From an uncultured Rhodobacteraceae bacterium (GTDB lineage: Bacteria; Pseudomonadota; Alphaproteobacteria; Rhodobacterales; Rhodobacteraceae): a stretch of DNA of 64,000 nucleotides. The translations under genes and the position numbers were made by a program. Below the pieces are notes generated by a model. The model did not search any database. It was given only the letters and a program-made list of their open reading frames with translations, and was not told the origin of the DNA. The DNA is taken from positions 184,947 to 248,946 of the forward strand of contig CANLVD010000005.1 of NCBI GenBank assembly GCA_947494445.1. Reading direction: 5' to 3'. Below are positions 21,503-64,000 of this stretch, one piece after another (the first letter of the stretch is position 1; each line of letters opens with the position of its first letter).

Positions 21503-21584
21503 GATCTGGCGCAGGGACATCCATCGGCGCAGCGCGGAACACCCCCATCGAGGGGGAGTTCCGCGCGCATGTGTTCGGGGCTCG

Positions 21585-25650: not shown

Positions 25651-26400
25651 TTAAGGCAGGAGGCCCTTGGTCCGGCGTTCAAGGCGTGTGGCAAGAATGC
25701 CAAGCGCCCAGTGCATCAGCACCGTGAAGGAGGCCAGCACCACCAGTGCGGCGAACATCAGATCGGTTTTCGCCCGTCCATTTGCCAGCAGCATCAGGTA
25801 GCCCAGACCGCGCGATGCGCCGACCCATTCACCGATCACAGCCCCGATGGGAGCATAGACCGCCGCGAGCCTGAGGCCCGATGCAAGATTGGGCAAGGCT
25901 GATGGCACACGGATGCGCCAGAGCACGCGGGCAGGCGTCGCGTTCATTACGCGAGCCAGATCAAGATAGCCCTTTGGCGTGTTCATCAGCCCATCCAGAA
26001 AGTTGGACGTGACCGGGAAATAGATGATCAGCACGGTCATCAGGATCTTGGACCCGATCCCGTACCCCATCCAAAGGGTCAGAACCGGCGCAAGGGCAAA
26101 GACCGGCACAGCTTGGGAGAAGACAAGCGCGGGCATCACGAACCTGCGCGCCATGGGCGAGGTGCTTAGATGCAAAGCGGTAGCGGCACCCATTGTGGTG
26201 CCAAGGACCAGCCCTGCCAGCACTTCCAGCCCGGTGATCCATGCATTTTCGAAGATCAGAGCACGCGATGTCCACAGGGTCTCGGCTACCTTGGCGGGTG
26301 CGGGCAGAATAAAGCCTGGTGCACCGGTCAGTGTGACGACCACTTGCCAGATCGCGATCAGGACCAGCGCCACAATGCAACCGTTGAGCAGGCTTTTCAT
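25651..26400 (-). CDS. ABC permease (NitT/TauT-type), thiamine-pyrimidine salvage operon
   Basis: 249 aa with 6 TM helices. Overlaps the stop of the upstream ATPase gene. Confidence 0.85.
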   Translation of the reverse strand: MKSLLNGCIVALVLIAIWQVVVTLTGAPGFILPAPAKVAETLWTSRALIFENAWITGLEVLAGLVLGTTMGAATALHLSTSPMARRFVMPALVFSQAVPVFALAPVLTLWMGYGIGSKILMTVLIIYFPVTSNFLDGLMNTPKGYLDLARVMNATPARVLWRIRVPSALPNLASGLRLAAVYAPIGAVIGEWVGASRGLGYLMLLANGRAKTDLMFAALVVLASFTVLMHWALGILATRLERRTKGLLP

Positions 26401-27113
26401 GCGGCCCTCAACTGTCTGAGAAGGGCGGTCTGCCGGTCCAGAACTGCCGGGTCATCAACCGCGCGAATGGGTGTCCCGCTGGGGGCGGCTACTTTTGAGA
26501 TGCCGCTGTCCTGCATCAGCAGGATTTCGGTTCCAAGCCGTGCAGCCTCGGCCGGGTCATGCGTGACCAGCAGAACGCTGCGCCCTTTCAGCAATTCAAA
26601 CGCCAGCTCCTGCATTTCGGCACGTGTCTTTGCATCAAGTGCGGAAAACGGCTCGTCCAGAAGCACGATGGGCCGGTCTTCCATCAACGTTCGCGCCAGA
26701 GCAGCCCGTTGCCGCATTCCACCGGAAAGCGCAGGTGGATGCTTGTCGCGATGGGCTTGTAGACCGGTCCGCACAAGCAGGTCATCCAGCCGGGCCTCTG
26801 TCGCTTCACCCCGCAGCTTCGCTCCAAGCTGGATGTTCTGCGCCACGTTCAGCCAAGGCAGCAGCAGATCGGACTGCGCCATATAGGCAAGCCGTCCTTC
26901 AAGGGACTTGCCGTCGCTGGTGGACACTTCTCCCGAGAACGCCACACCCACATCCAGACCGGCAATCAGGCGCAAGAGCGTGGATTTACCCACACCCGAG
27001 GGACCCAGAAGACAGGTCCAGACACCAATGGGCAGGGCCAGATCAACGGCAGTCTGCGGACCCGCCCCCATGTGCAATTGACCTGTGAGGTGAACCTCAG
27101 GCGGCTGCATCAT
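26397..27113 (-). CDS. ABC ATP-binding protein (NitT/TauT-type)
   Basis: Walker A GPSGVGKST, signature LSGGMRQR, Walker B LLDEPFSALD. Start set at MMQPPEV, directly after the tenA stop. Confidence 0.85.
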   Translation of the reverse strand: MMQPPEVHLTGQLHMGAGPQTAVDLALPIGVWTCLLGPSGVGKSTLLRLIAGLDVGVAFSGEVSTSDGKSLEGRLAYMAQSDLLLPWLNVAQNIQLGAKLRGEATEARLDDLLVRTGLQAHRDKHPPALSGGMRQRAALARTLMEDRPIVLLDEPFSALDAKTRAEMQELAFELLKGRSVLLVTHDPAEAARLGTEILLMQDSGISKVAAPSGTPIRAVDDPAVLDRQTALLRQLRAA

Positions 27114-27790
27114 GCGCCCCGCAGCCCCATGTCCCAGAAACGGGCCTCCAATGTGGTGGCCGTATCGAACCGGGTTTGCAGCGATGCCCACCGTGGAGAG
27201 GTCTGGGACGATGGTCCAATGCGCGCCGCCACAGCGTCATCGATCATCCGACCCACATCCTGACAGAGCGCCTGATAATCCTGACCGCCATATGTGTTGA
27301 TCCAGTCCAGATATGCGGTGTCAGGAGAGTGGGACGCGATCAGATCTGCACCAATTTCCCCGTATCCCAGAACACATGGGGCAAGAGCTGCCATCAGATC
27401 GAGAAAATCCCCCGACAGGCCAGCATCCATGACATAGCGCGTATAGGCCATGTTCTCAGGCGCTTCGGCTGTCGCGAAAAGCTCCTGTTCCGTGATGCCT
27501 TCTGTTGCACAGGTCTGCACATGCATCTGCATCTCGGTGTTGACCAGCGCGTCCACCGTACCGGCGGCGGCCTTCATCTCGTCCAGTGATCCGGATTTTA
27601 CCACCGCCAAGGCCCAAGCCCGCGAGAAATGGATCAGGAAGACATAATCCTGCTTGAGGTAATGCAGGAACGCCGCTCGTGGCAGCGTTCCGTCGCGCAG
27701 GCCTTCAACAAAGGCATGACGGGTGTAGGCAGGCCAGCGCGCGCCCGCAGACGCACGCCACGCTGTATGGGTGGTACCGTAACCGTTCAC
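27110..27790 (-). CDS. tenA: TenA-family aminopyrimidine aminohydrolase (thiaminase II)
   Basis: 226 aa with motif FLHYLKQDYVFLIHFSRAWA, in a thiamine salvage context behind a TPP riboswitch. Confidence 0.85.
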   Translation of the reverse strand: MNGYGTTHTAWRASAGARWPAYTRHAFVEGLRDGTLPRAAFLHYLKQDYVFLIHFSRAWALAVVKSGSLDEMKAAAGTVDALVNTEMQMHVQTCATEGITEQELFATAEAPENMAYTRYVMDAGLSGDFLDLMAALAPCVLGYGEIGADLIASHSPDTAYLDWINTYGGQDYQALCQDVGRMIDDAVAARIGPSSQTSPRWASLQTRFDTATTLEARFWDMGLRGA

Positions 27791-50447: not shown

Positions 50448-50604
50448 TGCCGGTTCAGATGGCGTTCCGGTCAACCTCACCTCTTGAAACTCCTTCAATG
50501 GGTGATCGCGACTTGTCGCATTCAAGCAAGTTTCGCCGCAGACGGTCCAGAAGACAGTGCTTCACCCGATAGGCTCGCTCAAGACGGAATATGGGAGAGA
50601 TGTC

Positions 50605-53154
50605 ATGCAAACCCAGGCTCGGGTCGTTGTAATCGGCGGTGGAGTGGTCGGATGTTCGGTCCTGTACCACCTTGCCAAGGCAGGCTGGACCGATGTTCTG
50701 CTGATCGAGCGTTCAGAGCTGACTTCTGGATCGTCATGGCATGCGGCAGGCGGGTTTCACACGCTTAACGGCGATCCCAACGTGGCAAAGCTGCAAGCCT
50801 ATACAGTGGGTCTGTACAAGGAGCTGGAAGAGCTTTCGGGCCAATCCTGCGGCTTGCATCTGACCGGTGGTTTCATGATGGCGGATACGCCTGAGCGGAT
50901 GGATTTCCTGCGTGCCGCCCATGCCAAGGGGCGATACCTTGGCATGTCTACGGAACTTGTCTCCCCTGAGGAGGCCAAGGCAATGTTCCCGCTTCTGGAC
51001 ACGTCTCATTTTGTTGGCGGTCTTTGGGATCCGGTTGAGGGCCATCTCGATCCATCAGGCACCACGCATGCCTATGCCAAGGCCGCGCGCAAACTTGGCG
51101 CATCCATCGAGCTGCGCAATCCAGTGGTGGAGATCACGCAGGATGCTGACGGCACCTGGAATGTGGTGTGCGAGAATGGAACCGTGCGCTGCGAGCACGT
51201 GGTCAACGCCGGCGGGCTTTGGGCGCGTGAGGTGGGTCGGATGGTCGGGCTGGAGCTGCCGCTTCTGGCCATGGAGCATATGTATCTTTTGACCGAAGAC
51301 ATCCCCGAGATCGTCGAATTCAACGAGACCCACGGCCGGGAAGTCTGCCACATCATTGATTTCAAGGGTGAGATCTACACGCGTCAGGAACGTAACGGCC
51401 TGCTGGTCGGCACCTATGAGAAAGCCTGTAAACCATGGTCACCGGTGACCACACCATGGGAATTCGGCCATGAATTGCTGGAGCCGGATCTGGATCGCAT
51501 CAGCCCCAGTCTTGAGATCGGCTTCAGGCACTTTCCGGCCTTGGAACATGCTGGCATCAAGCAGGTCATCAATGGACCATTCACCTTTGCACCCGATGGC
51601 AACCCGCTGGTTGGTCCTGTACCGGGCCTGACGAATTTCTGGTCGGCCTGTGCGGTCATGGCAGGGTTCTCTCAAGGGGGAGGAGTGGGGCTGGCGCTGT
51701 CGAACTGGATGGTTCACGGCGATCCCGGGTTTGATGTTTTCGGTATGGATGTTGCACGCTTCGGAGAATGGGCCAGCCTGCGCTACACGAATGCGAAGGT
51801 TCGCGAGAACTATTCCAACCGCTTCTCCATCCAGTTCCCCAATGAGGAACGGCCTGCGGGGCGGCCTGCTCAGACAACGGCGCTCTACGATGTGATGACG
51901 CGCGACAACAATGCGGCCATGGGCTTTTCCTGGGGTCTTGAGACGCCGCTTTGGTTCGCGCCTGAAGGGGAGGCGCCTGTAGATGTGCTGTCTTTCCACC
52001 GCTCAAACGACTTTGAGCATGTAGGTGCAGAGGTCCGGGCTGTGCGCGAGGCTGTTGGCGTCACCGAAATCTCGAATTTTGCGAAATACGAGGTCACGGG
52101 CGAAGGTGCTGAAGACTGGTTGAACCATCTGATGACGAACCGGATGCCAAAGACCGGACGGATCGTTCTCAGTCCGATGCTCAACGAAGCGGGCAAGCTC
52201 ATCGGAGATTTCACGATCGCCAAACCTGCTGAAGACCGTTTTGTGATCTGGGGCTCTTCTGGCGCGCAGATGTATCATATGCGCTGGTTCGATGTGCATC
52301 TGCCCAAAGATGGTTCGGTGCGGATCCATCGTTTTGACCAGACATTGTCGGGTCTTTCTCTTGCGGGGCCAAAGTCACGGGATGTTCTTGCCGCTCTGGT
52401 GGAGTGTGATGTCTCGAACGCAGCTTTCCGCTTCATGGACCACCGGGAAATGGCTGTGGCAGGCGCGCCTTGTCGGGTCAACCGGATCACCTATACCGGT
52501 GATCTGGGATATGAGATCTGGATGCAACCGGCGCATTTGCGTCAGGTCTATGACGGCATCAAGCAGGCAGGTGCGGCACATGGCATCCGGGACTTCGGGA
52601 TGCGGGCTCTGCTGTCGATGCGCTTAGAAAAGAACTTCCCGACTTGGGGGCACGAGTTGCGCCCGATCTATGGTCCAATGGAAGGGGCGATGGAGCGTTT
52701 CGTGAAACTGTACAACACCGACTTCATCGGGCGGGATGCGGCCCTGAAGGAGGCTCAGGATGGCCCGAACCTTCGACGTAGCGCATTTGTCATAGATGCC
52801 GAAACCGCAGACGTGATGCGTGACGAACCGATTTGGGCGCGGGTTGGCGATCAGGATTTTGGCATTTCTGCGCCCGTGCATGACAGTGGTGTCAGACGTT
52901 ACCGGGATGATGGCAGCACAGTCGAGATGGTGAGCAATCTGACAGACGGAGAGTGGCGGGTCGTCGGCTGGGTGACCTCTGGCGGCTATGCGCATTATGT
53001 CGGTCTTTCCATGGCTCAGGGCTATGTTCCAGCGTCCCTGTCTGAGAAAACCGAAGATGGTTTCTTTGAGATCGAGATCCTTGGAAAGCGCTTGCCAGCG
53101 CGTCTTGTCCTTGATCCACCGTTCGATCCCGAAGGTCACATCATGCGTTCTTGA
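50605..53154 (+). CDS. FAD-dependent oxidoreductase fused to a GcvT-type aminomethyltransferase domain (dimethylglycine/sarcosine dehydrogenase family)
   Basis: Start at MQTQARVVVIGGGVVGCS (FAD GxGxxG). Has a large C-terminal folate-binding GcvT-like region. Confidence 0.85.
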   Translation: MQTQARVVVIGGGVVGCSVLYHLAKAGWTDVLLIERSELTSGSSWHAAGGFHTLNGDPNVAKLQAYTVGLYKELEELSGQSCGLHLTGGFMMADTPERMDFLRAAHAKGRYLGMSTELVSPEEAKAMFPLLDTSHFVGGLWDPVEGHLDPSGTTHAYAKAARKLGASIELRNPVVEITQDADGTWNVVCENGTVRCEHVVNAGGLWAREVGRMVGLELPLLAMEHMYLLTEDIPEIVEFNETHGREVCHIIDFKGEIYTRQERNGLLVGTYEKACKPWSPVTTPWEFGHELLEPDLDRISPSLEIGFRHFPALEHAGIKQVINGPFTFAPDGNPLVGPVPGLTNFWSACAVMAGFSQGGGVGLALSNWMVHGDPGFDVFGMDVARFGEWASLRYTNAKVRENYSNRFSIQFPNEERPAGRPAQTTALYDVMTRDNNAAMGFSWGLETPLWFAPEGEAPVDVLSFHRSNDFEHVGAEVRAVREAVGVTEISNFAKYEVTGEGAEDWLNHLMTNRMPKTGRIVLSPMLNEAGKLIGDFTIAKPAEDRFVIWGSSGAQMYHMRWFDVHLPKDGSVRIHRFDQTLSGLSLAGPKSRDVLAALVECDVSNAAFRFMDHREMAVAGAPCRVNRITYTGDLGYEIWMQPAHLRQVYDGIKQAGAAHGIRDFGMRALLSMRLEKNFPTWGHELRPIYGPMEGAMERFVKLYNTDFIGRDAALKEAQDGPNLRRSAFVIDAETADVMRDEPIWARVGDQDFGISAPVHDSGVRRYRDDGSTVEMVSNLTDGEWRVVGWVTSGGYAHYVGLSMAQGYVPASLSEKTEDGFFEIEILGKRLPARLVLDPPFDPEGHIMRS

Positions 53155-53226
53155 CCTTAGGGCAGCTGCAAGAGGCGATTCTCTACCCGCCACGATCCGA
53201 ACACAGTTAACGGAGAACATTTGGCG

Positions 53227-53264
53227 TTAAGCACTGGTTAACCAGCAAGATTGCCCTATATAAT
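53227..53264 (+). promoter_or_regulatory. candidate CtrA-dependent promoter: TTAA-N7-TTAAC box over the -35 position plus a TATAAT -10
   Basis: The box TTAAGCACTGGTTAAC (53227-53242) is a perfect match to the alphaproteobacterial CtrA consensus. TATAAT lies at 53259-53264, 16 nt downstream of the box. Confidence 0.5.
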
Positions 53265-53422
53265 GGGTTCGATCAGCTGAAAAACGCCAAAAGATGACAA
53301 AAACACATGTTTGATATGCATATGATGCATGGCAGTCATGACGAGAATGCACTACTGAATGGTCAAAAAATTGTCATATTGCGCGTCACACCGATTAACC
53401 GGATGAAATGAGGTAGAACGTA

Positions 53423-53737
53423 ATGTTCGATTACGTTGATGAAAATGCTTTCTCCTACGATCAGGGGAAACGCTCACAGAAATTGTTCGCCGCCGTTGTG
53501 CTGGCAGCATTGGATGACGCCATCGCTGATGACAAGAAATACGGCAATGGTCCGGATGTCATTGCCAGATGGGCACGCTCTCGCGATGGGCGCGAGGTCC
53601 TGATGTGCGCTGGCATTGATCCGAACGAGCGGACTGTCAAAGGTATGATGGATTTTGTTGGCCGTGGTGTCAGAACTTCTGTCGCACTTAGCCGCGAAGA
53701 AAGCGAACGTCAGGCTTTGGCGCGCGACGCCGCCTGA
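53423..53737 (+). CDS. small orphan cytoplasmic protein (possible regulator)
   Basis: 104 aa with a GAGG Shine-Dalgarno 7 nt upstream. No signal peptide or TM helix, and no family recognised. Confidence 0.55.
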   Translation: MFDYVDENAFSYDQGKRSQKLFAAVVLAALDDAIADDKKYGNGPDVIARWARSRDGREVLMCAGIDPNERTVKGMMDFVGRGVRTSVALSREESERQALARDAA

Positions 53738-53752
53738 TTTCCAAGAAACCAA

Positions 53753-53774
53753 ATGCCCGCCACTGGCAGGGCAT
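53753..53774. terminator. hairpin between convergent genes (weak terminator candidate)
   Basis: ATGCCCGCCACTGGCAGGGCAT is an imperfect stem-loop. An A-run precedes it, giving a U-run on the minus strand. Confidence 0.35.
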
Positions 53775-53799
53775 CTGTCGATGATCCTAGGCGATTGCG

Positions 53800-54429
53800 T
53801 TAACCGCAGTCGCCCAGTCCTTTTCTAGCGAAGATTTCCACACGTCGATTGCGCGGGTCAGATCCGGCAACGCCCGGTAATGGGCTGGTTTCACCGGCAC
53901 CCACCAGCCAGAACCCGAAACCTTCCGTGCCGATCCGATCTTCAAGGAAGCGCCTGACCAGCTCGGCGCGCCGCAAAGAGACCCGGGCATTTGCATCCTC
54001 TGCGCCGATGGTGTCGGCATGGCCCACAAGTTTGATGCAGGTTCCCTGAAATTCTGGCAGCCGCAATGCATTTGCCAGCTTATTCAGAATCTGCTCAACC
54101 TCGGCGGAAAGCGAACTCGAACTGGCCATGGCCACCGAAAAACTGCCCGTATCAACACTTGCCGCAGGCAGGTTTGTCTGAATGATCTCAGGCTGCGGGG
54201 CAGGGGTCGGAGCGATCGTCTGGGCTGGCGCAAGATCGGCATCTCCACCTTTGGACAAGGCAGTGTGGCAGGTTGCGCGGTCCATGCCGTAAAGTGAAAA
54301 CAGGACTTTGCAATGGGCGTCCACGACCTCTGGTGCAAGCGGGCGTTCGTTTGCAAGAGCGGAACTCATTGAACAGCAGCAAGCAGCGATTAGCGCTAGT
54401 GCAAGACGCGGCAGGTTTGGTAGTCGCAT
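53800..54429 (-). CDS. OmpA-like peptidoglycan-binding (lipo)protein
   Basis: Signal peptide with possible lipobox LIAAC. C-terminal OmpA_C-like motifs (VGHADTIG...NARVSLRRAE...NRRVEI). Confidence 0.8.
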   Translation of the reverse strand: MRLPNLPRLALALIAACCCSMSSALANERPLAPEVVDAHCKVLFSLYGMDRATCHTALSKGGDADLAPAQTIAPTPAPQPEIIQTNLPAASVDTGSFSVAMASSSSLSAEVEQILNKLANALRLPEFQGTCIKLVGHADTIGAEDANARVSLRRAELVRRFLEDRIGTEGFGFWLVGAGETSPLPGVAGSDPRNRRVEIFARKGLGDCG

Positions 54430-54595
54430 GACGGTGTCCTCCTGCGCGGTTTAATAAAAACAAGTCAATAACGCTTCGTAAACGGCGAGGCCCCGTCTTA
54501 AGCCAAGGGCCTGGGAATAATTTTCGGATGCTTCACGGTTAATTTACCGCCCTCAGTCATTTGACGTCACAAATGCCGGGAAGGAGGGAATATCC

Positions 54596-55738
54596 GTGCC
54601 AAAACAATCTGATCGCATGATCTGGCTGGATTGCCTTCGTTTGCTGGCGGGCGTGTCCATGGTCGGGCTTCATGCCTCTTCAGACGCAAACGGACTGCCA
54701 TTTCCTGATTTCCCAGCAGAAGAGCGCGTCTTCCCGGTGCTGTTTCGGTCCGTGATCTACATCGCGCGAACTGAGCTTTTTATCATCATTTCACTTTTCC
54801 TTTTGTGCATGGCCGTGGATGCACGACCTCGCAGCTATGCTGAAATGGTGCGCCAGCAGTTTCGCAGATTGATGGTTCCTTTTGCTTTTTGGGTTGTTGT
54901 TTTTGCGTTCTACAACCTCATCAAGGCACAGCAGTTCGGGTATGTTGATGCAATCCGCACGGACCTTGGAAGTCCTGTCGTCTGGTTAGGGTACTTCGTT
55001 CTGGGCGATGTGAAATACCATATGCATTTCCTTCCCACACTCTTTCCGCTGGTTTTCATGCTGCCACTTTACCGTCTGGCCGTCCGCCATCCGGAACTTG
55101 CATTGGTCATTCTGCTGTGTCTGGCAGCCAAACGTGAGATCGACATGTTCCTGTGGGCCAATCTCAAGGAGGTTGCCGGCTTTGACTACATCGTCCGCTT
55201 CATCAAGGTCCTGACGTATATGGGATATGGAATGGTGGCGGGAGCGTTCTATGGCATCTACACCCGGGGATTTTCCCGGACAGAGGGAACAGCATTGATC
55301 GGTTTAGCGCTGACGGTGGGTTTGATGCTCTATGCGCTCAAGCTCGCCTATTCCTGGCGGGTGATAAACACCGGCAATTGGCAATGGAATTTCACACCCG
55401 CCTTCTGGGCGGACTTTCTGATGCCGGTTGTTGTCTTTCTTGGTGTCATGGCTGCCTGCCACCGAGCATGGCCGTTGATCCTGAGCAAGCTCGCACCATT
55501 CAGTTTTGGCCTTTACCTTGCGCATCCACTGTTTCTTGATCTGGCGGAAATCGGATCGCGAAACTGGGACCTTTCACCCAGTCAATTGGTCATTGTGAAG
55601 GTCACGTTCGCAGTTCTGACCACATCCCTGTTTCTCGCAGGTCTGGCACGTTTCAAACCTCTTGCCTGGACCATAGGCATGGGGCCATTGCCAGGGATCT
55701 TGCGCCTCAAGCTCACGTCTTCGAAAGCCACTCAATGA
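54596..55738 (+). CDS. acyltransferase-3 family integral membrane O-acyltransferase (OpgC/OafA-like)
   Basis: GTG start behind AAGGAGGG. About 10 TM helices and the N-terminal WLDCLRLLAGVSMVGLH motif typical of Acyl_transf_3. Confidence 0.8.
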   Translation: MPKQSDRMIWLDCLRLLAGVSMVGLHASSDANGLPFPDFPAEERVFPVLFRSVIYIARTELFIIISLFLLCMAVDARPRSYAEMVRQQFRRLMVPFAFWVVVFAFYNLIKAQQFGYVDAIRTDLGSPVVWLGYFVLGDVKYHMHFLPTLFPLVFMLPLYRLAVRHPELALVILLCLAAKREIDMFLWANLKEVAGFDYIVRFIKVLTYMGYGMVAGAFYGIYTRGFSRTEGTALIGLALTVGLMLYALKLAYSWRVINTGNWQWNFTPAFWADFLMPVVVFLGVMAACHRAWPLILSKLAPFSFGLYLAHPLFLDLAEIGSRNWDLSPSQLVIVKVTFAVLTTSLFLAGLARFKPLAWTIGMGPLPGILRLKLTSSKATQ

Positions 55739-55772
55739 TACAAAAAATACACAAGAATGAAGCAGGTTTTCC

Positions 55773-57263
55773 ATGAGGTTGATGACTCAAACATACCGGC
55801 AAATCTGTCTGGTTTCACTTGACGACGAGCGGTTCGATCGCAAACGCGTGCCGTCCTTCATCAGTCAGATCAACGGCTTGATCAAAACAGGACAGCGACA
55901 TTTCGTGTTTGACTTCAGCAAGGTACGCCATGTCGATTTCTCGGCGCTGACGGCTGTGGTGACGGTATTCCAATCGCTGGGATCGGCAGGCTCTGCCGGA
56001 CTTTGCGGCCTTGATATCCGCGCCAGTGCCCGGTTGAAACAAGCTGGTCTTGAAAGTGTTTTCGTTCAATGGCCGGATGCGCGGGCCGCACTGAACTATT
56101 ATGGCTTGTCTCCCATCAATTGCTTGCGGACATCTGGCATGCAGGCGGTCGTATTGTCTGGGAAGAGATCCCAGTCAATCTGTTCCATGGCGCCTGGTCA
56201 AACCTCAGCAATGTTTCCTTTGCTGCACCGGCCCGTTCTTGACCATGTCCTGAACTATCTGTCGGTCCACGGACAGCGCAAGGTGGTTGCGAGTGTTGAC
56301 TACGGTATGCCGGAGATCGAAGGCTATTTCGGGCAAGGCGATGCATATGGAATAGACCTTAAGCTCTCGTCTGAAGCCATTATGACAGCAGCGGGCTCGG
56401 TCCCGGCACCCCTTGGCAGTACCGCCAGTCTGAGGCAGTCGCTTCTGTTGCATGGGCCCGGTGATATGCCGGTGCTGGCAATTACCATGGGCTGCCTGCC
56501 CCAAGTTGACCTGACGGCCATGCAGCGTGCGCATAATCGAACCGGAGCGGATATTACCTTGAGCGGCAGCGCAACGATCGGCAGGACTGCACCCTCCGAT
56601 AATCCGGTCTGGTTTGTGGATCACGATGGTGAGGTCAAGGGGCAGGGCAGTTTGCTTCAGGTGCCCCCTGATCTTGCCGGATTTGCAGATACGGGCGTCA
56701 TGATTCTGTCATCACGTGCACTGGATCTTCTCCCCGATGTTGAGGACTTCGATCTGGTTGCAGAATTCGTGCCTGTCGCGATCAAGTCCGGCCTGAAAGT
56801 GGCTCTGGTACGCGATGATGCCCAGAGGATGCTTCTATCGACCTTGTCGGACATCTATTCATCAACCTGCCACCTACTTGATCGCAATGCCTGTTCAAAC
56901 GCACAGGCCCAAGAAGCCTCGTATCTCTTCGCTGACCATGCCGCCACATGCCATATTTCACCCGATGCCCGTATTTCTGGACAGGTATCCTTTGGCACCG
57001 ATGTCGTTGTTCAGGCAGGAGTTGAAATTTCGGGCCCGACCGTTATTGGCGCGGGTAGCTTCATTGCCAAGAACAGCCGGATCAATCGATCACTTCTGAT
57101 GCCCGGCACCAATTTGGCTGAAGGCGCGCGCATCAATGACCTGATCGTCAACAACCAGCAGGCCATGCGTTTGCATCCGCAAAAAGCTGTTGTCGATCTG
57201 CCTGAGCCTGTCCTGCTCCGCCCTGATCAGGTGCCAGAGACACTCTCGAAACAGGCTTCATGA
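55773..57263 (+). CDS. fusion protein: N-terminal STAS (anti-sigma-antagonist-like) domain + sugar-nucleotidyltransferase-like domain + left-handed beta-helix hexapeptide repeats
   Basis: STAS-like block FVFDFSKVRHVDFSALTAVV...ARLKQAGLESVF (aa 8-108). NTP_transferase-like block AVVLSGKRSQS...FPLLHRPVLDHVLNYL...GYFGQGDAYGIDL. Hexapeptide repeats ISGQVSFGTDVVVQAGVEISGPTVIGAGSFIAKNSRI. Confidence 0.7.
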   Translation: MRLMTQTYRQICLVSLDDERFDRKRVPSFISQINGLIKTGQRHFVFDFSKVRHVDFSALTAVVTVFQSLGSAGSAGLCGLDIRASARLKQAGLESVFVQWPDARAALNYYGLSPINCLRTSGMQAVVLSGKRSQSICSMAPGQTSAMFPLLHRPVLDHVLNYLSVHGQRKVVASVDYGMPEIEGYFGQGDAYGIDLKLSSEAIMTAAGSVPAPLGSTASLRQSLLLHGPGDMPVLAITMGCLPQVDLTAMQRAHNRTGADITLSGSATIGRTAPSDNPVWFVDHDGEVKGQGSLLQVPPDLAGFADTGVMILSSRALDLLPDVEDFDLVAEFVPVAIKSGLKVALVRDDAQRMLLSTLSDIYSSTCHLLDRNACSNAQAQEASYLFADHAATCHISPDARISGQVSFGTDVVVQAGVEISGPTVIGAGSFIAKNSRINRSLLMPGTNLAEGARINDLIVNNQQAMRLHPQKAVVDLPEPVLLRPDQVPETLSKQAS

Positions 57264-57356
57264 GAGGCGTGGGATTCCTAAGATTTTAGGCATTTTCAGT
57301 TTTAATGCCCAAGCGATTTAACACTCTTTGACCGATTTGCTCCGATAAGTCCGAGC

Positions 57357-59363
57357 ATGAACATGATAAACGGATCCTTACCGGTATCAGATGCGCAGGA
57401 TGCGCAGAACACAGCACCGGACCCTCGGGTGGTAACCATCAGGGACCGTGTTCTGCCAAACTGGGCCAAGATCCTGATCGCAATCTTTGCGATAAGTTCC
57501 GGCCTGCTGGGGCTGTCTGTCTCTTTCCTGCCGCTGTTTTTTCTCGACTCTGCTATTTTGTCGGGATCCGCCGACTTGATCATGACGATTTTAGGGGTTG
57601 GGGCTGTCCTACTGTCGGGAAGCATGCTCCTGGATTTCATTCGCACCCAGATCCTTGCCGGTCTGGAAAGTGAGCAGAATCGCTACATCACTATTGTGGA
57701 GGCCTGTCTTGGATTGGCTGTCGCAGCGTTTCTGGCTCTGGTTCACCCTTTGCTTGTGTTTGGTGTTCTGTTCAGTGCGGTGCTGACGACGTTGGCGACA
57801 TTCATGTTCATGCGCTTCTTTCCTGTGGATCTCTCGGACAGTTTCGACAAGTCAGAGGCGGCTGCGATGCTGTCGGGCCGCGACCCGTTTGGGCTTTCAC
57901 TCAGTGTCCTTGGCAAGAGCAGGGTTCCGGTTCTGTTTGGCTCGGTGATGCAGCTTATCTCGGGCTTCGGATTTCTGATCGTCTTTGGCACGGGTGCATG
58001 GCTGGTCTCAGAGCATATGATTTCCGAGGGTGGCCTGGTGGCGGCGGCGTTTTTGAGTCTTCGCGCATCGCGTGCCTTTGCCGATTTTGCTCGGCTGGAA
58101 TTCGACAGTGAGGTGTCGCTGTTTGACTGGCTGATGGAACGTCGAAGTCAGGAACGGGCCATGCCTGCAAGCACATCGGATGATGACGTGATAACCGACG
58201 AAATGGCTGAGTCCGATGGACTGCTGGTGTCCAACCTGATGGTGCATTCTGTCGAAGATACCTCGCGTCTGGTCGGGCCGTTGGATTTCAAGGTCGCGAG
58301 AGGGCGTGTGCTGGGTCTGACTGGCGAACGGTCAGGCGGTAAATCTACAGTTCTGAAAGCCCTGATTGCCGGCAAGCGGGCCAATGGCTTTCATGTGTCG
58401 GGCACTGTTCTCATGGATGGCGCATTTCTGTGGCGCTGGAGTTCGCGAAACACCGGTCTGCAGGCCATGGCAGTCCCTGAATCGCCGGCAAACCTTCCGG
58501 GAAGTGGCATCGACAACGTCACGACCTTTGATGAGGAAATCGACGTGCGCGAGGCAAAGGCGGCATTGCAACGCATCGATGTGATGTCCGCTCATACAGA
58601 CCGTATTCTCACCACCAGTGATGCCAGAAGCCTGTCAGCACAGGAGACCAAAATTCTGGCGCTCGCCAGGACTTTTCTGCTTCGGCCAAAACTGTATCTG
58701 CTCGACATGCCGGAAAAGGATCTTTACCCGCGGGGACTGTTCGCTCTCGCCGATCTGATCCGCAAGGAAAAGGAGTTTGGCGCATCCTTTGTAATTGTCT
58801 CCAAAAACCGATCTATCCTGGACCTTTGTGATGAGGTGATTGTTCTTGAGTCCGGCAATATCAACGACCGTGGAACGGCTGAGGAAGTCCTCGCGCGCCA
58901 GGACTCCGGTTGTCATCGGATCGTCGTTGAGCAAAACCCGGATTCAGAAGATCGCCTGTCGGCTTGGGTCAGATCGCTCTACACCCGCAAAGGTGACGAG
59001 GAAAACAGAAAGACAGCTGCAGATCTTGTCAGCGATCTGATTGCCTACTCCTGTGCCGGATCGGGCGCGGCTCCGGGCCAGACCATCTTTGATCTTCGCC
59101 ATCAGGTCGGCTCGACCACGATCACGATGTATGATCATGGCCCCATGCTGTCGACCGTGCAGATTGCGGCAGTGCGGGAGTTGAAGGAAGCCCCTCCGAT
59201 CAACTCTCCCAAACGACCGTTGTGGAACATCGTCAACTCAAGTCTGGAGTTTCATCAGGAGGTCAGCGGCGATGCCGAGGAAACACGCGTCACCAAGGTA
59301 TCGTTCGAAATCTATGACCCACGGCTGAAAGGGGATCCATCATTGAAAGAGGCAGGCAAATGA
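57357..59363 (+). CDS. ABC exporter-like protein (TMD-NBD) with degenerate catalytic motifs and an extra C-terminal RsbW/SpoIIAB-like domain
   Basis: About 6 TM helices (aa 35-245). Walker A GERSGGKST is intact. The signature is LSAQE (canonical LSGGQ), Walker B is LYLLDMPE (no catalytic Glu), and the H-loop position is Lys. About 140 extra residues follow the NBD. Confidence 0.75.
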   Translation: MNMINGSLPVSDAQDAQNTAPDPRVVTIRDRVLPNWAKILIAIFAISSGLLGLSVSFLPLFFLDSAILSGSADLIMTILGVGAVLLSGSMLLDFIRTQILAGLESEQNRYITIVEACLGLAVAAFLALVHPLLVFGVLFSAVLTTLATFMFMRFFPVDLSDSFDKSEAAAMLSGRDPFGLSLSVLGKSRVPVLFGSVMQLISGFGFLIVFGTGAWLVSEHMISEGGLVAAAFLSLRASRAFADFARLEFDSEVSLFDWLMERRSQERAMPASTSDDDVITDEMAESDGLLVSNLMVHSVEDTSRLVGPLDFKVARGRVLGLTGERSGGKSTVLKALIAGKRANGFHVSGTVLMDGAFLWRWSSRNTGLQAMAVPESPANLPGSGIDNVTTFDEEIDVREAKAALQRIDVMSAHTDRILTTSDARSLSAQETKILALARTFLLRPKLYLLDMPEKDLYPRGLFALADLIRKEKEFGASFVIVSKNRSILDLCDEVIVLESGNINDRGTAEEVLARQDSGCHRIVVEQNPDSEDRLSAWVRSLYTRKGDEENRKTAADLVSDLIAYSCAGSGAAPGQTIFDLRHQVGSTTITMYDHGPMLSTVQIAAVRELKEAPPINSPKRPLWNIVNSSLEFHQEVSGDAEETRVTKVSFEIYDPRLKGDPSLKEAGK

Positions 59364-60556
59364 CACAGCCAGATCAGGCTCTGCCAAGGCGTAAAAAGCC
59401 ATCTGTGCTTCGCAAACTGGTTCGGGGCACCGTCGTTCTTTTGTTTACCGGGACGGTCTTCTTTGTCATCGGATGGAGTTGGGGCACTGAGGAAGAGCAC
59501 CTGACCTATCGGGGATGGATGAGTTCCCAAACTGTGGTGGAAACCATCACGATCCCCCGCAGCCACAGTCTTGTGCGGTTGGAAGTGACCGAAGGGCAGC
59601 GCATTCGCGAAGGCCAGCGCATCGCTGTGATCCAGCATAGACCGGACACGAAGCAAGACGTGAATGTAGCGGCCGAGATAGCAGAAATAGACGGGATACT
59701 TGCCTGTTTGACAGGTCAGAGAAGCGCAGGAATACCCGGAACCGACGTGCGTTCTCATGAAATTTGCGAGGCTTTGGCTCCACCAAACCAGATTGATGAC
59801 CCATCATCTGAACTTCAGGTGTTACGCTGGAGGCGTCTCGTCCTGGCATCAAGATTGCTTGACGAATACCAGGCGCAAATCGGACAATCTCCATCGGAAC
59901 TGGCGGCAGGATTATCGCTTTATCAGGATTCCCTGAAAGCAAGGTCGACCTCACTGGAAGGTGGCCTGAGAGCCAAGAGAGCTGGGGCAAATATTAACCC
60001 GGACTTGTTGCGTCAACAGCGTGAAAACCTTGCTGCGGTCCTGAACAAGGTCCGATCCCAATTGGTCAGCCGATCCCAGCAAGCACAGACACCACCCACC
60101 ATGATTGATCTGGTGGCACCACGCTCGGGCCGTATTGTACATCTGCGTGAAGGCGTATCCGGTGTCGAGGCCCGCCAGCCGATCACCCTTGCGCAGATCC
60201 TTCCGGAGACGGTGAGTCCGCCAACCGTGGTATTCGAGATCCCGATTGCCCAGTCGCAGACAATCTCTGTCGGGTCCGAAGTACTTGTGACCACGATCGG
60301 CTTGCCTTCGAAAAGTCAGGAGTTTGTAGGCTTGGTTACAAACCATCGTCTGACGTATTCCCCCGGAACAGACGCTCGGCGCATTGCTCTGACAGTCTTG
60401 TTGGATGACACCGTTGCCGCCGCAATTGAGCAGGATCCGGCATCAGCATTGATTCTGGATCCAGGGTCAATGACGCCTGTTGAGATCAAACCACGACATC
60501 GACCGCTTGGTCTGGTTGGCCTGAAAGCACGCATCCGAACTTTGGTGAGGCTCTGA
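59360..60556 (+). CDS. HlyD-family periplasmic adaptor (membrane fusion protein)-like
   Basis: ATGA overlap with the ABC gene. N-terminal TM helix, lipoyl-like hairpin halves (VRLEVTEGQRIREGQRIAVI ... APRSGRIVHLREG) and a coiled-coil middle. Confidence 0.75.
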   Translation: MTQPDQALPRRKKPSVLRKLVRGTVVLLFTGTVFFVIGWSWGTEEEHLTYRGWMSSQTVVETITIPRSHSLVRLEVTEGQRIREGQRIAVIQHRPDTKQDVNVAAEIAEIDGILACLTGQRSAGIPGTDVRSHEICEALAPPNQIDDPSSELQVLRWRRLVLASRLLDEYQAQIGQSPSELAAGLSLYQDSLKARSTSLEGGLRAKRAGANINPDLLRQQRENLAAVLNKVRSQLVSRSQQAQTPPTMIDLVAPRSGRIVHLREGVSGVEARQPITLAQILPETVSPPTVVFEIPIAQSQTISVGSEVLVTTIGLPSKSQEFVGLVTNHRLTYSPGTDARRIALTVLLDDTVAAAIEQDPASALILDPGSMTPVEIKPRHRPLGLVGLKARIRTLVRL

Positions 60557-60651
60557 CATGGCGATTACATCGGGAAAAATCGTCTCAACGTTATGCATTC
60601 ATTTACGGCATTTTGTTTTGAATGCCGCAAACCGGAAGAGTTAGAGACAGC

Positions 60652-62352
60652 ATGGAACCGTCCAGAAACAACAAGTCCAAGAAAAATCGTGGAGCGCCAT
60701 TCCTGGCGACGGCGCTGTTTCTCGTTGTGGGGACAGCCGTTCTTGCCGGGGCAGTCAGTCTGGGCGACTACGCCAAACATATTTTCCGAAACAAGGAATT
60801 CGAAACCAACCCGATCATCGCCGGTTCCGAGGATGACGATCTGCCCATGCTCATGCGCGGCAACCTGCCAACGGTTACCAACAGTCTGTCTTTTGGTACG
60901 AAAAAGCGCGAGCGTGTTCCACGCATGTGCGAGATGCCCAAAAATTACTATGAAAAGAACCCGTGGCCTGAAGACCTGGTGGTCGGGTATCAAAGAGACA
61001 ACAGTTATGTACGCCCGTACCGTCCCAATCGTGGATTTCTGACCGAGCGGGAAATGGCTGCGGCACGGGTCGCTTGGCACTACTTCGAGTCCTTCACTCA
61101 GGAAAATACCGGATTGGCAAATTCGGTGGGTAACTACCCCTCAACAACCCTGTGGGATACGGCATCCTATATCAGCGGTCTGGTTGCTGCGTATGAACTT
61201 TGCATCATAGAAAAGCCCGAGTTCGACAAACGCGCCTATGCGTTGCTGACAACATTCAAGACCCTCAAGCTTTTCCGTCGCGAGATGCCCAACAAGGTGT
61301 ATCAGACCAAGACAGGCGAGCAGGTGGACTACACCAACAAGCCTGGCGAAGTCGGGTATTCTGCACTGGACATCGGACGCTTTATGGTCTGGATGCGCAT
61401 ACTCAAAAATAGATACCCTTATCTTGGAAACACGATCGATAGTGTTTTGCTCCGGTGGGACTACTCGCGCATTTTTGATGCTGACGGTCTCATGTATGGC
61501 GCGCGCATCGACAAGGAAACTAACGAGACCCTTTACGATCAGGAAGGCCGCCTTGGCTACGAGGAGTATGCTGCAAAGGGATTTGCGCTCTGGGGTTTTC
61601 AACCCAGGCTGGCGCATAGGGCTGAGCCGTTCCTGATGGCCAGTATCTTCGGAATTCAGGTGCCCTATGATGGACGGGACCCCCGTGTATTTCACTCGCA
61701 GAATTATGTGGTTACAGAGTCTTATCTGCTTGATGGATTGGAGTTGAACTTTGATCTTCCGCATGATGATACCAGCCCCGACTGGGTTCATTCCGACGGT
61801 TGGAGAGCAGAATTTGCCGACCGGATCTACCAGGTTCAGGAAAACCGGTACCTAAGAACGGGATTCATGACGGCTCGGTCAGAGCACAACGTCAAAGGCC
61901 CTCCGTATTTCACCTATGATACGATTTTCTCGGATGGGTATCCTTGGAACACTGTCACGCCAAGGGGCGATTACGCCCCTGACCATGCAGCCATTGCTTC
62001 AAAAGCGGCATTGGGGATCTGGTCGCTATGGAAGACAGACTACAGCGGTCTTTTGTTCGATGCGATCATCGACCTCTACAACCCGGAAAGCGGTATGTAC
62101 GAAGGCCTTTATGAAGGCGGTCAGGGACGGGTCGAGATCTATACCGCCAACAACAATGGCATCATTCTTGGTTCACTTTTGCACAAGGTTCAGGGAAAAA
62201 TCCTGACCCCTTACAATGGCCCGACCGAAGTCTGGTATACCGCATTCCGTGATCGCGACATCCGGCTGGTCAGAAACCTTCCTGATCCACCGCAACGCGA
62301 AGACTGGCTTCCAGCTTTGCGTCACTCAACCCAACTGGAGCTAGACTACTGA
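60652..62352 (+). CDS. membrane-anchored periplasmic protein, six-hairpin glycosidase-like (DUF3131-like)
   Basis: N-terminal TM helix (FLATALFLVVGTAVLAGAV), then a domain of about 480 aa with motifs such as TTLWDTASYISGLVAAYEL and SALDIGRFMVWM. Family assignment is from memory. ATG 60622 is an alternative start. Confidence 0.6.
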   Translation: MEPSRNNKSKKNRGAPFLATALFLVVGTAVLAGAVSLGDYAKHIFRNKEFETNPIIAGSEDDDLPMLMRGNLPTVTNSLSFGTKKRERVPRMCEMPKNYYEKNPWPEDLVVGYQRDNSYVRPYRPNRGFLTEREMAAARVAWHYFESFTQENTGLANSVGNYPSTTLWDTASYISGLVAAYELCIIEKPEFDKRAYALLTTFKTLKLFRREMPNKVYQTKTGEQVDYTNKPGEVGYSALDIGRFMVWMRILKNRYPYLGNTIDSVLLRWDYSRIFDADGLMYGARIDKETNETLYDQEGRLGYEEYAAKGFALWGFQPRLAHRAEPFLMASIFGIQVPYDGRDPRVFHSQNYVVTESYLLDGLELNFDLPHDDTSPDWVHSDGWRAEFADRIYQVQENRYLRTGFMTARSEHNVKGPPYFTYDTIFSDGYPWNTVTPRGDYAPDHAAIASKAALGIWSLWKTDYSGLLFDAIIDLYNPESGMYEGLYEGGQGRVEIYTANNNGIILGSLLHKVQGKILTPYNGPTEVWYTAFRDRDIRLVRNLPDPPQREDWLPALRHSTQLELDY

Positions 62353-63926
62353 TGAACAGCAAAAAACTCAGAATGTTGTTGATTGCATCCATCATTGTTG
62401 CAGCAACTCCAACTCATCAGGCTGCTGCACAATCAAATGCAGGACCAGAGAGATTTGACTCCGAAAATGCGGTACTGGACACGTCCAAGCCATTTGCCAT
62501 AGGCGCTACTGAGGCTGAGCAGGCCATTCGCGGAGCTTTTGGATGGCCGGTTTTTCAAGAAGGCATCGTTGCTGGCGCATATTTCCGGTTTGATCCGGAC
62601 GGATACGCACGTTTTGGCCCTTCGCCGCGGCTCGACAGGGATGTCTGGGAGGTAACCTGTGTTGCCCGCACTGTGATCTGTGCAGCCAACAAGATGGGTG
62701 TCGAGGTGGCGCTGACGGATCAGGGCATGATGCAAATGGCCATCTCGGGATTAACTGTGCAGGACACTTTTTTTCTGTCAGACGGGACGTCTGAATTGCC
62801 CTTGCCACCAAGGGTGTTGGAGCCGCTTGATGATCGGCTTGAGGCGCTCCTGATTTCTGGTGGCAACCTTGTTGTTCGTCGTGAAAACGAAACCATTCAT
62901 GACATCAGCCTCAATGGTCTGGGCGCCGTTGTCCCGTATTTGCGGTGGGTTGCCAACAAGCAGGATTACTCTGTTTTGCCTGTTAACTGGCCGATCCCGA
63001 ATTCTGGAAACCAGATTAGTAAAGGGTTGACACAGGTTGCGGACTGGAACGGAAATGGTGCGCCTCCACAGAATTTGCAAACGTCCTGGGCAATGCGAAA
63101 CCAGCAGAATACCGCTCCGAGCGGAGGCTTTGACCAGCAACATCAAAGAGGGAACCAGCCGGTCAATGTTACAATCGTGCCAGGCTTGATGGGCGCAACC
63201 CAGTCCATGCAACAGGCAGGTCTCGGTTCGACAGGATCTGCCGGTGGCAACGAGCTGAATTCTGAGATCTCCCGTCTTGAAGGGCAAATTGCCCAACTTC
63301 AGCAGGCATTCAACAAGGATGCTGAGGTAGCCGGAACGAACTCAGTTGGTCAGCTTCAGTCCAGTTCAAATCAAATGACCCCAACACCGCAAGCAACTCC
63401 ATCAGATGCTATGGGCAGTGATAGCCTCCGACCTTATCTGGAGGAAATTCTGGTTCGTTTGGCTTGGATTCAAAGTGTTTTGCAACCGATTGCTCATGAT
63501 CATGCGCAGGTGTCTGCGGCGCAAAGTGCAGCTCCACACCATTCCACAAGTTCCAGTGGTGTGCTGCAAATGGCCTCTCCAGGACAGCTGGAAACCATGC
63601 CAAGCATAGCCTTGAACCAGATTGCCGGGTTGACGGCTGCTCCAAGTCCTCTGGAACACTCACAAAACAACGCACTGGTTCCCGCCATGCCGTCACTCCA
63701 GCAATCACCCGTTCAGGCTAGCGCTGGGATCTCTCCCGAACTTGAGATGGAAAAGGCTTTGATTGAACGTATTCTGCTTGAACTGGATGAAGGTCAGTCA
63801 GGAAACGCACCCCAAGCGGCAGAGCTTGCACCTGTGGTCACTCCGCAAATTGCCGGCCAAGCTCCTCAGGGAGAGTTCAAGGCAATCACAGATTTCCTGA
63901 ACGAAGCCATGTCGTCAGGCGGCTAG
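62352..63926 (+). CDS. secreted protein with a globular N-terminal half and a Q/S/P-rich low-complexity C-terminal half
   Basis: TGATG overlap with the upstream gene. Signal peptide MNSKKLRMLLIASIIVAATPTHQAAA and a short coiled-coil segment (EISRLEGQIAQLQQAF). Confidence 0.6.
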   Translation: MNSKKLRMLLIASIIVAATPTHQAAAQSNAGPERFDSENAVLDTSKPFAIGATEAEQAIRGAFGWPVFQEGIVAGAYFRFDPDGYARFGPSPRLDRDVWEVTCVARTVICAANKMGVEVALTDQGMMQMAISGLTVQDTFFLSDGTSELPLPPRVLEPLDDRLEALLISGGNLVVRRENETIHDISLNGLGAVVPYLRWVANKQDYSVLPVNWPIPNSGNQISKGLTQVADWNGNGAPPQNLQTSWAMRNQQNTAPSGGFDQQHQRGNQPVNVTIVPGLMGATQSMQQAGLGSTGSAGGNELNSEISRLEGQIAQLQQAFNKDAEVAGTNSVGQLQSSSNQMTPTPQATPSDAMGSDSLRPYLEEILVRLAWIQSVLQPIAHDHAQVSAAQSAAPHHSTSSSGVLQMASPGQLETMPSIALNQIAGLTAAPSPLEHSQNNALVPAMPSLQQSPVQASAGISPELEMEKALIERILLELDEGQSGNAPQAAELAPVVTPQIAGQAPQGEFKAITDFLNEAMSSGG

Positions 63927-63969
63927 CATGACACTGAATTGCTTCGCTCTTGATGCCCAGAGGTAGGCT

Positions 63970-64000
63970 ATGCCAGACGCTTCGATGAGCAAGGCATCCG
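63970..64000 (+). CDS. 5' end of the next operon gene (truncated by the window)
   Basis: ATG at 63970 about 7 nt after AGAGG (MPDASMSKAS...). Only 10 codons are visible. Confidence 0.25.
   Translation, partial: MPDASMSKAS

Follow-up and report, generated by a model that had tools for sequence, protein, structure and literature searches.

An exporter-like ABC protein family of the Rhodobacterales with conserved degenerate hydrolysis motifs and a C-terminal SpoIIAB/RsbW-like domain, encoded in a putative polysaccharide locus

The DNA analysed here (the window) is a 64,000-nucleotide stretch of contig CANLVD010000005.1 from an uncultured Rhodobacteraceae bacterium, in which six genes on the forward strand between positions 54596 and 63926 code in turn for an Acyl_transf_3 protein, a protein with STAS and nucleotidyltransferase-like domains (STAS-NTP), an ATP-binding cassette (ABC) exporter-like protein, a HlyD-like adaptor, a DUF3131 protein and a secreted protein of 524 amino acids (aa; Table 1). 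The third of these, hereafter the ABC-like protein, is the principal subject of this report: it combines a membrane domain, a nucleotide-binding domain (NBD) with an intact P-loop but degenerate hydrolysis motifs, and a C-terminal domain with the fold of SpoIIAB and RsbW. Public gene calls place the start of its gene at the third codon (57363), giving a product of 666 aa, and PGAP labels members of the family 'ATP-binding cassette domain-containing protein' and nothing more. The sole Pfam match is to ABC_tran (PF00005; residues 308–452; 48.5 bits against a gathering cutoff of 25), no match to ABC_membrane having been returned by the Pfam scan of the window protein. The ATGA at 59360–59363, in which the stop codon of the gene overlaps the start of the adaptor gene, was found as reported in an earlier first-pass annotation that had taken the two to be translationally coupled, and a homologous adaptor open reading frame (ORF) overlaps or abuts the stop of the ABC-like gene in 38 of 41 loci.

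Table 1. Coordinates of the ABC-like gene, its domains and motifs, and the neighbouring genes in the window.
Feature	Position (nt)	Strand	Basis and remarks
ABC-exporter-like gene	57357–59363	+	ORF, 668 aa; membrane domain, degenerate NBD and C-terminal SpoIIAB/RsbW-like domain
Membrane domain	57459–58106	+	Residues ~35–250; six predicted helices; hydropathy and DSSP of model
Degenerate nucleotide-binding domain	58218–58901	+	Residues 288–515; Pfam, NCBIfam, PDB-chain alignments, family columns
Walker A, GERSGGKST	58323–58349	+	Canonical GxxxxGK[ST]; recomputed coordinates
Q-loop position, Glu375 (not Gln)	58479–58481	+	Within AVPESP (58470–58487); aligned to ABCB1 Gln
Signature, LSAQE replacing LSGGQ	58632–58646	+	phmmer alignment to PDB chains
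Walker B region, LYLLD450-M451-P452-E453	58692–58715	+	LYLLDM at 58692–58709; Asp kept, Met at catalytic Glu
H-loop position, Lys483 (not His)	58803–58805	+	phmmer alignment to PDB chains
C-terminal SpoIIAB/RsbW-like GHKL-fold domain	58902–59327	+	Residues 516–657; domain-only AF2 model, Foldseek
HlyD-like membrane-fusion (adaptor) protein	59360–60556	+	398 aa; HlyD_3 26.4 bits against cutoff 22.2; weak HlyD_D23
STAS, sugar-1-phosphate nucleotidyltransferase-like and left-handed beta-helix (LbH) protein	55773–57263	+	Pfam STAS, Hexapep/LbH, NCBIfam
Acyl_transf_3 (OpgC-like) membrane acyltransferase	54596–55738	+	Pfam 100 bits
OmpA-family peptidoglycan-binding protein, divergent	53800–54429	-	Pfam/NCBIfam
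DUF3131 protein, N-terminal membrane anchor	60622–62352	+	576 aa; Pfam 380 bits; most conserved gene of the cluster
Secreted protein, signal peptide	62352–63926	+	524 aa; no Pfam/NCBIfam match; paired with long DUF3131

The first-pass annotation, made from the letters of the window and a list of their ORFs, had described a canonical Walker A motif accompanied by substitutions at most of the positions concerned with hydrolysis, while allowing that the canonical Glu and His residues might simply have been mis-registered. Recomputation returned Walker A, LSAQE, LYLLDM and the H-loop Lys at exactly the same coordinates, and phmmer alignments of the ABC-like protein with PDB chains, ABCB1 and others, fixed the remaining registers: 'avpesp' fell on 'vSQEP', LSAQE on LSGGQ, LLDM on LLDE and 'fvivsknrs' on 'viviAHRLS'. 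The four substitutions proposed at first reading were thereby upheld, Glu375 lying on the Q-loop Gln of ABCB1, LSAQE on the signature, Met451 on the catalytic Glu of Walker B and Lys483 on the H-loop His, and the alignment restored neither of the residues suspected of mis-registration. In addition, the A-loop Tyr was found to align with His297, and the D-loop reads KDLY in place of the canonical SALD. Measured against the hallmarks of the ABC superfamily, the protein has the ABC_tran match, Walker A and the hhhhD of Walker B, but not the catalytic Glu, LSGGQ, the Q-loop Gln, the H-loop His or SALD.

Relatives of the ABC-like protein were recovered only by exhaustive phmmer, which yielded 57 representative clusters at E < 1e-30, nearly all of 640–680 aa and aligned from end to end. 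Word-indexed searches with the single protein returned only a near-identical metagenomic copy (P0001 on contig L001; 664 of 666 residues the same, 99.7%) together with generic ABC proteins, and with the family alignment generic ABC transporters only. The plasmid collection gave no match to the ABC-like protein, and a search for loci among GTDB species representatives with the same single query found nothing, but use of a pattern and sub-alignment containing the family Walker B motif DRPEDG led to 36 true loci, all of them in the Rhodobacterales and among them loci of Shimia, Pseudoruegeria, Sulfitobacter, Tropicimonas, Phaeobacter italicus, Thalassovita, Actibacterium and Roseivivax. A further 12 locus matches from outside the Rhodobacterales (L044–L055) were discarded as canonical ABC proteins without the DRPEDG motif. 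The counts given below refer to 87 distinct full-length sequences, made up of 48 phmmer relatives and the ORFs from the 36 genome loci, all of them from Rhodobacterales wherever the taxonomy is known.

Across this set the P-loop and the Walker B Asp are all but invariant (G323 in 87/87, G328 in 86/87, K329 in 86/87, Ser or Thr at position 330 in 87/87, and Asp450 in 87/87), whereas Glu occurs at the catalytic position 451 in none (Arg 69, Gln 5, Met 4, Leu 4, Thr 2, Val 1, Cys 1 and one His) and His at the H-loop position 483 likewise in none (Glu 40, Asp 24, Gln 6, Gly 5, Ser 4, Asn 3, Arg 2). The commonest residues at the Q-loop position 375 are Pro (34), Ala (16), Glu (15) and Ser (7); the signature follows the pattern L-[S/P]-x-x-[E/Q/D], in which Gly-Gly is not conserved; the D-loop reads DG[L/A]x; and the A-loop aromatic residue is not conserved. 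Immediately after the catalytic position, Pro452 (87/87) and Glu453 (84/87) are specific to the family, whose invariant family-specific residues comprise G174, R175, P452, W537, R544 and D654-P655-R656. The check on orthologues that the first-pass annotation had called for was accordingly decided in favour of a family-wide condition. Because no Glu or His is rescued by alignment, and because the relatives share the degeneracy, it is an old and selected state and not the decay of one strain.

That the gene might be a decaying or strain-specific pseudogene, or else an ordinary type I secretion system (T1SS) ABC gene read in the wrong register, is scarcely credible in the light of these counts. 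The ABC-like protein has admittedly evolved much faster than its DUF3131 neighbour (~28–33% against 68–75% identity across genera), and the GC content of the locus lies below that of the rest of the window; yet an intact ORF of 640–680 aa with the same order of domains and the same family-specific invariant residues is found throughout the 87 sequences, and alignments to Pfam, to NCBIfam and to PDB chains each bear out the registers. Comparison with the 99% identical L001 copy revealed 8 synonymous and 2 non-synonymous differences, which places the gene under purifying selection, and the reading as strain decay was rejected on this synonymous excess taken together with the 57 clusters and the conservation in 87 sequences.

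A separate pattern was apparent in the residues at positions 451 and 483: Arg451 is paired with Glu or Asp at 483 in 54 of the 87 sequences, and three of the four Met451 members, the window protein included, carry Lys or Arg at 483. Small as these numbers are, it may be the presence of a basic group beside the gamma-phosphate pocket that is conserved, with the charge possibly relocated between the two positions.

Given the head-to-tail geometry of NBD dimers (PMC7756269), any dimer that includes the ABC-like protein would contain two impaired composite sites, because Walker B and the H-loop as well as the signature and the D-loop are degenerate within the one chain; the proposal in the first-pass annotation that both sites of a homodimer would be degenerate is thus consistent with the family as a whole. 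The same consideration bears on whether the protein might be the non-catalytic subunit of a heterodimer, comparable to TM287, TmrB or BmrC, whose canonical partner would be specified by a gene in another part of the genome. Heterodimers in which one site is degenerate are frequent among type-IV exporters (PMC7756269), and the inspection covered 64 kb of a 344-kb contig, but with its own signature and D-loop degenerate the ABC-like protein would render the site of its partner non-canonical as well, unlike the arrangement in known heterodimers. Moreover, a search for the second half-transporter that the first-pass annotation had suggested disclosed no other of exporter type in the 64-kb window and none recurring within 10 kb in the 36 related loci, the other ABC matches in the window being to importer-type ATPases at 1662–2711, 21309–23222 and 26397–27191. 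A heterodimer is therefore considered very improbable.

An AlphaFold2 (AF2) model of the whole protein, generated from a 48-sequence alignment (pLDDT 88; pTM 0.85), contained the membrane helices followed by the NBD and then a further alpha/beta domain. Foldseek comparison of this model with the PDB ranked PrtD (5l22; E 3e-16) and HlyB (8dck) first, over ~567 columns though with TM-scores of only 0.3–0.4. The best NCBIfam models were likewise those of T1SS half-transporters, albeit with scores far under their cutoffs (TIGR01842, PrtD, 91 against 510; TIGR03375, LssB, 74 against 693; TIGR01846, 41 against 726), and homology with PrtD and HlyB extends from TM5-TM6 through the NBD. The family is an uncharacterised one, restricted to the Rhodobacterales and probably derived from T1SS-type (PrtD/HlyB-like) ABC half-transporters, with which it also shares an adjoining and translationally coupled gene for a HlyD-family adaptor. 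It departs from them in the absence of the catalytic and coupling motifs, in predicted membrane helices of 24–35 residues that fall below the canonical type-IV exporter length in the AF2 model, in the extra C-terminal GHKL domain, and in having polysaccharide genes and not RTX-type substrates as neighbours. The cytoplasmic loop between helices 4 and 5 nevertheless carries a conserved motif, S-G174-R175-D176 (G174 in 87/87; R175 in 85/87), which suggests that coupling between the transmembrane domain (TMD) and the NBD is still under selection.

With such a fold and such an adaptor, a working ATP-driven exporter has to be considered, moving a glycan, a lipid-linked intermediate or a protein through the HlyD-like adaptor by means of non-canonical catalysis in which Glu453 would serve as the base or Arg451 or Lys483 would stabilise the transition state. 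The strict P-loop and Walker B Asp, the near-constant Pro452 and Glu453, and the almost universal presence of a basic residue near the gamma-phosphate site, whether Arg451 (69/87) or the Lys or Arg that stands at 483 in three of the four members with Met451, would all be in keeping with a pump of this kind. It is made unlikely, however, by the concerted loss of five motifs (Q-loop, signature, D-loop, H-loop and catalytic Glu), when mutation of the catalytic Glu alone suffices to block function in canonical exporters (PMC7756269), by the distance of the T1SS models from their cutoffs, and by the Sec signals or membrane anchors of the neighbouring secreted proteins, which are hence not T1SS substrates.

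While the first-pass annotation was sound in respect of the motifs, it was incomplete in that residues 516–657 were overlooked. A domain-only AF2 model of these residues (pLDDT 92.6) returned SpoIIAB, RsbW and UsfX as the top 15 Foldseek matches in the PDB (E 4e-7 to 3e-4; probability 1.00; TM-score normalised to target 0.62–0.82), several of them being complexes with STAS antagonists, and BceS (8g3a_D) was present among the weaker matches. Sequence comparisons were less informative: most members have no Pfam match for the domain, HATPase_c_2 (PF13581) matches 3 of 29 relatives (best E 2.8e-4) and not the domain of the window protein, comparison of the C-terminal profile with the PDB gave a chance match only, and a word-indexed search with the C-terminal alignment found three proteins. 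An hhalign comparison of the profile with a SpoIIAB sequence was not significant but was consistent in register, and served only to suggest that register. The conserved features of the domain include GW-R-F, W537, R544-x-GD-E-x-N-RR, ELLALSC, F-F-KHF and TYDPR.

When the motifs of GHKL kinases were sought in the family alignment, the acidic residue of the N-box was found to be kept (Glu or Asp at 560 in 83/87), but the position aligned with the Mg-binding Asn, 564, is occupied by Leu in 46, Phe in 28, Val in 7 and Tyr in 3 sequences. The Asp of the G1 box is largely retained (D593 in 78/87) and its Gly is not (G595 in only 31/87), and no G2 box or ATP lid could be recognised in the C-terminal domain of the family. 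Because the N-box Asn is absent and the G1 and G2 boxes are degenerate, the domain is probably a binding-only pseudokinase. At one locus (L056, 2198–4160; ENA contig k141_348223) the domain stands nearly alone, as an ORF of 222 aa (P0229) that precedes the adaptor gene and follows a G6PD gene; the TMD and NBD are missing, P0229 being a remnant or a naturally truncated form.

The STAS domain of the upstream STAS-NTP protein occupies its N-terminus (residues 1 to ~110; 29.4 bits against a Pfam cutoff of 22.6). The product scored 71 bits with the NCBIfam model man1P_GTase_Rv; the Pfam NTP_transferase model was below threshold in the window protein and reached 131 bits in its counterpart at L003. 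The architecture recurs in 24 loci. Together, the fold of the C-terminal domain and the adjacency of the two genes make the STAS protein a putative binding partner of the RsbW-like domain. The residue at the position of SpoIIAA-Ser58 is Ser in the window; Ser or Thr occupies it in 14 of the 24 loci, Ala or Gly in 9 others and Glu in the last, a variability that argues against an obligatory phosphorylation switch.

The same residue bears on a further alternative, namely that the C-terminal domain is an active Ser/Thr kinase which phosphorylates the upstream STAS domain in a switch of the RsbW/RsbV type, with the ABC portion acting chiefly as an anchor in the membrane or as a sensor. Fold matches to SpoIIAB and RsbW, the Ser or Thr available in more than half of the STAS domains, and the regulation of All4160 by a switch of this type (PMC13555669) would all accord with such a kinase. 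With the N-box position taken by Leu, Phe, Val or Tyr in 84/87 sequences, Asn not being among the four commonest residues, with Asp alone left of the G1 box and no recognisable G2 box or ATP lid, with Ala, Gly or Glu at the STAS phospho-site in 10 of 24 loci, and with no PP2C phosphatase detected in the loci, it is nonetheless held to be distinctly improbable.

Independently of the STAS domain, the nucleotidyltransferase signature 'AG.G[ST]R..PL[ST]...PKP', seen in most loci, is altered in the window, where positions 56139–56220 (residues ~123–150) read 'SGKRSQSICSMAPGQTSAMFPLL'; it is similarly lost in five other lineages (L002, L009, L018/L038, L025 and L040). The STAS-tagged 'enzyme' of the window lineage may itself be a pseudoenzyme.

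The remaining genes of the locus have the character of a polysaccharide cluster. Of the 36 loci, 32 contain a long DUF3131 gene no more than 10 kb from the ABC-like gene; it is usually transcribed divergently and accompanied by a gene for a secreted protein, the homologues of the 524-aa protein (Unk524 and L003unk448) adjoining long DUF3131 genes in related loci. A family 2 glycosyltransferase (GT2) gene of 613–619 aa lies within the same distance in 26 of 36 loci, its closest relatives being cellulose synthases of the CelA/BcsA type (155 bits, below cutoff), and is followed in related loci by a second, shorter DUF3131 gene; STAS-NTP is found within 10 kb in at least 20 of the 36. The Acyl_transf_3 and OmpA genes recur at the cluster edge in related loci, and the gene neighbourhoods on the metagenomic contigs L002–L006 resemble those of the genome loci. 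No TolC-like gene was seen in the locus. DUF3131 found no match in the PDB by sequence, and its interpretation as a possible GH144-like beta-1,2-glucanase was dropped as unsupported.

Rates of evolution differ greatly within this one cluster: STAS-NTP, with 21–27% identity between genera, diverges further still than the ABC-like protein, while the long DUF3131 protein stands at the opposite extreme. A conserved protein of ~230–260 aa, present in ~20 loci (for example L004 12030–12809, L017 2775–3434 and L019 16358–17041), is usually encoded directly upstream of GT2; it has no Pfam or NCBIfam match, and no counterpart was seen among the genes of the window.

On balance it seems probable that the ABC-like protein and its adaptor form a non-hydrolysing, nucleotide-binding module that regulates or scaffolds polysaccharide synthesis and export by means of a contact resembling partner switching. 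The residues that in ABC proteins serve catalysis and coupling have been lost, namely the catalytic Glu (Arg or Met), the H-loop His (Glu, Asp or Lys), the Q-loop Gln, LSGGQ and the D-loop, whereas the P-loop Lys and Walker B Asp, kept in the family, could still bind nucleotide phosphate and Mg; this combination argues for a nucleotide-binding conformational switch or scaffold and not a pump. The regulatory or scaffolding role advanced in the first-pass annotation is strengthened by the SpoIIAB/RsbW-like domain and the STAS protein encoded upstream. We infer that a homodimer would bind nucleotide without turnover, and that its membrane domain and coupled HlyD-like adaptor would place it in the envelope beside a synthase-type polysaccharide machine comprising the BcsA-like GT2, the DUF3131 proteins, the OpgC-like acyltransferase and the OmpA-like anchor, the adaptor contributing to an envelope-spanning assembly for the GT2-made polymer. 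The RsbW-like domain would contact the STAS domain of STAS-NTP, and so recruit, sequester or activate that protein; in this way precursor supply or assembly of the machine could be made to respond to the state of the envelope or of export and to the occupancy of the nucleotide sites.

A number of observations weigh against the regulatory or scaffolding module so described. At three loci (L006, L011 and L026) only a four-gene core is present, with neither STAS-NTP nor GT2 within 10 kb, and no GT2 gene is visible in the window itself, which ends at 64000, 74 bases past the last gene; the GT2 and short DUF3131 genes of this lineage may lie just past that end, or may be absent from a divergent lineage. 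Since the A-loop aromatic residue is not conserved, ATP binding, and even the identity of any bound nucleotide, must be considered uncertain. Glu453, two residues past the catalytic position, might act as a substitute base. Finally, a classical phosphorylation switch appears unlikely, because Ser or Thr is present in the STAS domain in only 14 of 24 loci and because the GHKL domain is without the N-box Asn.

A more specific version of the regulatory module is possible but is put forward tentatively, being appreciably less probable than the general one. The hydrolysis-dead, exporter-fold ABC homodimer would here act as a transmembrane partner-switch receptor, in which occupancy of the two non-catalytic nucleotide sites and the state of the periplasmic adaptor or of the nascent polymer would set the conformation of the fused RsbW-like pseudokinase dimer, and so gate polysaccharide synthesis as that dimer captured or released the STAS domain carried by a sugar-nucleotide enzyme, with neither phosphorylation nor ATP turnover. 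Were this to be the case, the mode of signalling would be new for ABC proteins and for partner-switching modules alike.

Comparison with known systems reveals both precedents and departures. As in TM287/288, TmrAB, BmrCD, CFTR and SUR, the catalytic Glu and H-loop His are replaced; those proteins, however, retain one canonical composite site, while the chain encoded in the window would make both sites degenerate. CFTR and SUR are themselves exporter-fold ABC proteins turned to use as a channel and a regulator. In heterodimeric exporters the degenerate site retains nucleotide binding and plays a structural or regulatory role (PMC7756269).

The C-terminal domain resembles SpoIIAB, RsbW and UsfX in the fold of residues 516–657, in the weak HATPase_c_2 matches of some relatives and in the STAS protein encoded next door. 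It differs from them in being fused to an ABC-like membrane protein and in the absence of the N-box Asn and of the G boxes; no sigma factor is in view, and the STAS domain, whose phospho-Ser is not conserved, forms part of an enzyme-like protein. Domains appended to the NBD bind regulatory partners in MalK, MetN and ModC, and BceAB signals through a GHKL protein, BceS; unlike the window protein, MalK, MetN, ModC and BceAB all hydrolyse ATP, and their regulatory domains are of other folds or reside in a separate histidine kinase. The domain architecture of the family, in which a presumably hydrolysis-dead ABC exporter is followed by a probable RsbW-like pseudokinase, is new.

Partner switching applied to exopolysaccharide machinery has precedents. 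All4160 of Anabaena is a STAS-glycosyltransferase, in which a partner-switch module acts on a polysaccharide enzyme (PMC13555669), and SypA/SypE of Vibrio fischeri provide another case of such control of exopolysaccharide machinery (PMC4517449). In Sinorhizobium, the Bgr partner switch (BgrV/W) controls the BgsBA mixed-linkage glucan, as attributed to Baena et al. 2019 in PMC13438883, and the HlyD-like adaptor of that system, BgsB, acts together with TolC and a synthase of the GT2 family (PMC13438883). These systems share with that of the window the use of STAS/RsbW-type modules acting post-translationally on exopolysaccharide machinery; but they use a soluble, active kinase and involve no ABC-like protein, whereas the RsbW-like module of the window is an integral part of a presumably inactive ABC protein, and it is to that protein and not to the GT2 that the window adaptor is coupled.

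ABC exporters are normally defined by ATP hydrolysis, and to our knowledge degenerate exporter sites are found only beside a canonical one. The family described here would amount to a natural experiment in which both sites are degenerate while the protein, its TMD-NBD loop and its adaptor have been maintained in dozens of genera, and it could reveal what nucleotide binding alone does in an exporter fold. The RsbW-like fusion with a STAS-tagged enzyme next door would extend partner switching from the control of sigma factors to that of a membrane machine. In addition, it provides a starting point for tests of an as yet uncharacterised polysaccharide locus (GT2, DUF3131 and OpgC-like) that is widespread in marine Roseobacter-group bacteria and relevant to surface colonisation and biofilm formation, and it draws attention to a gap in annotation, given the generic PGAP name and a C-terminal domain that Pfam mostly does not match.

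Two minor features of the flanking DNA may be recorded. The GC content falls from 0.57–0.62 over positions 1–52000 to 0.53–0.55 over 52001–64000, the part that holds the polysaccharide and ABC-like locus, a drop which suggests that the cluster may have been acquired horizontally. A DUF6280 gene (53423–53737; 151 bits) lies between a dimethylglycine-dehydrogenase-like gene (50557–53154) and the OmpA-like gene.

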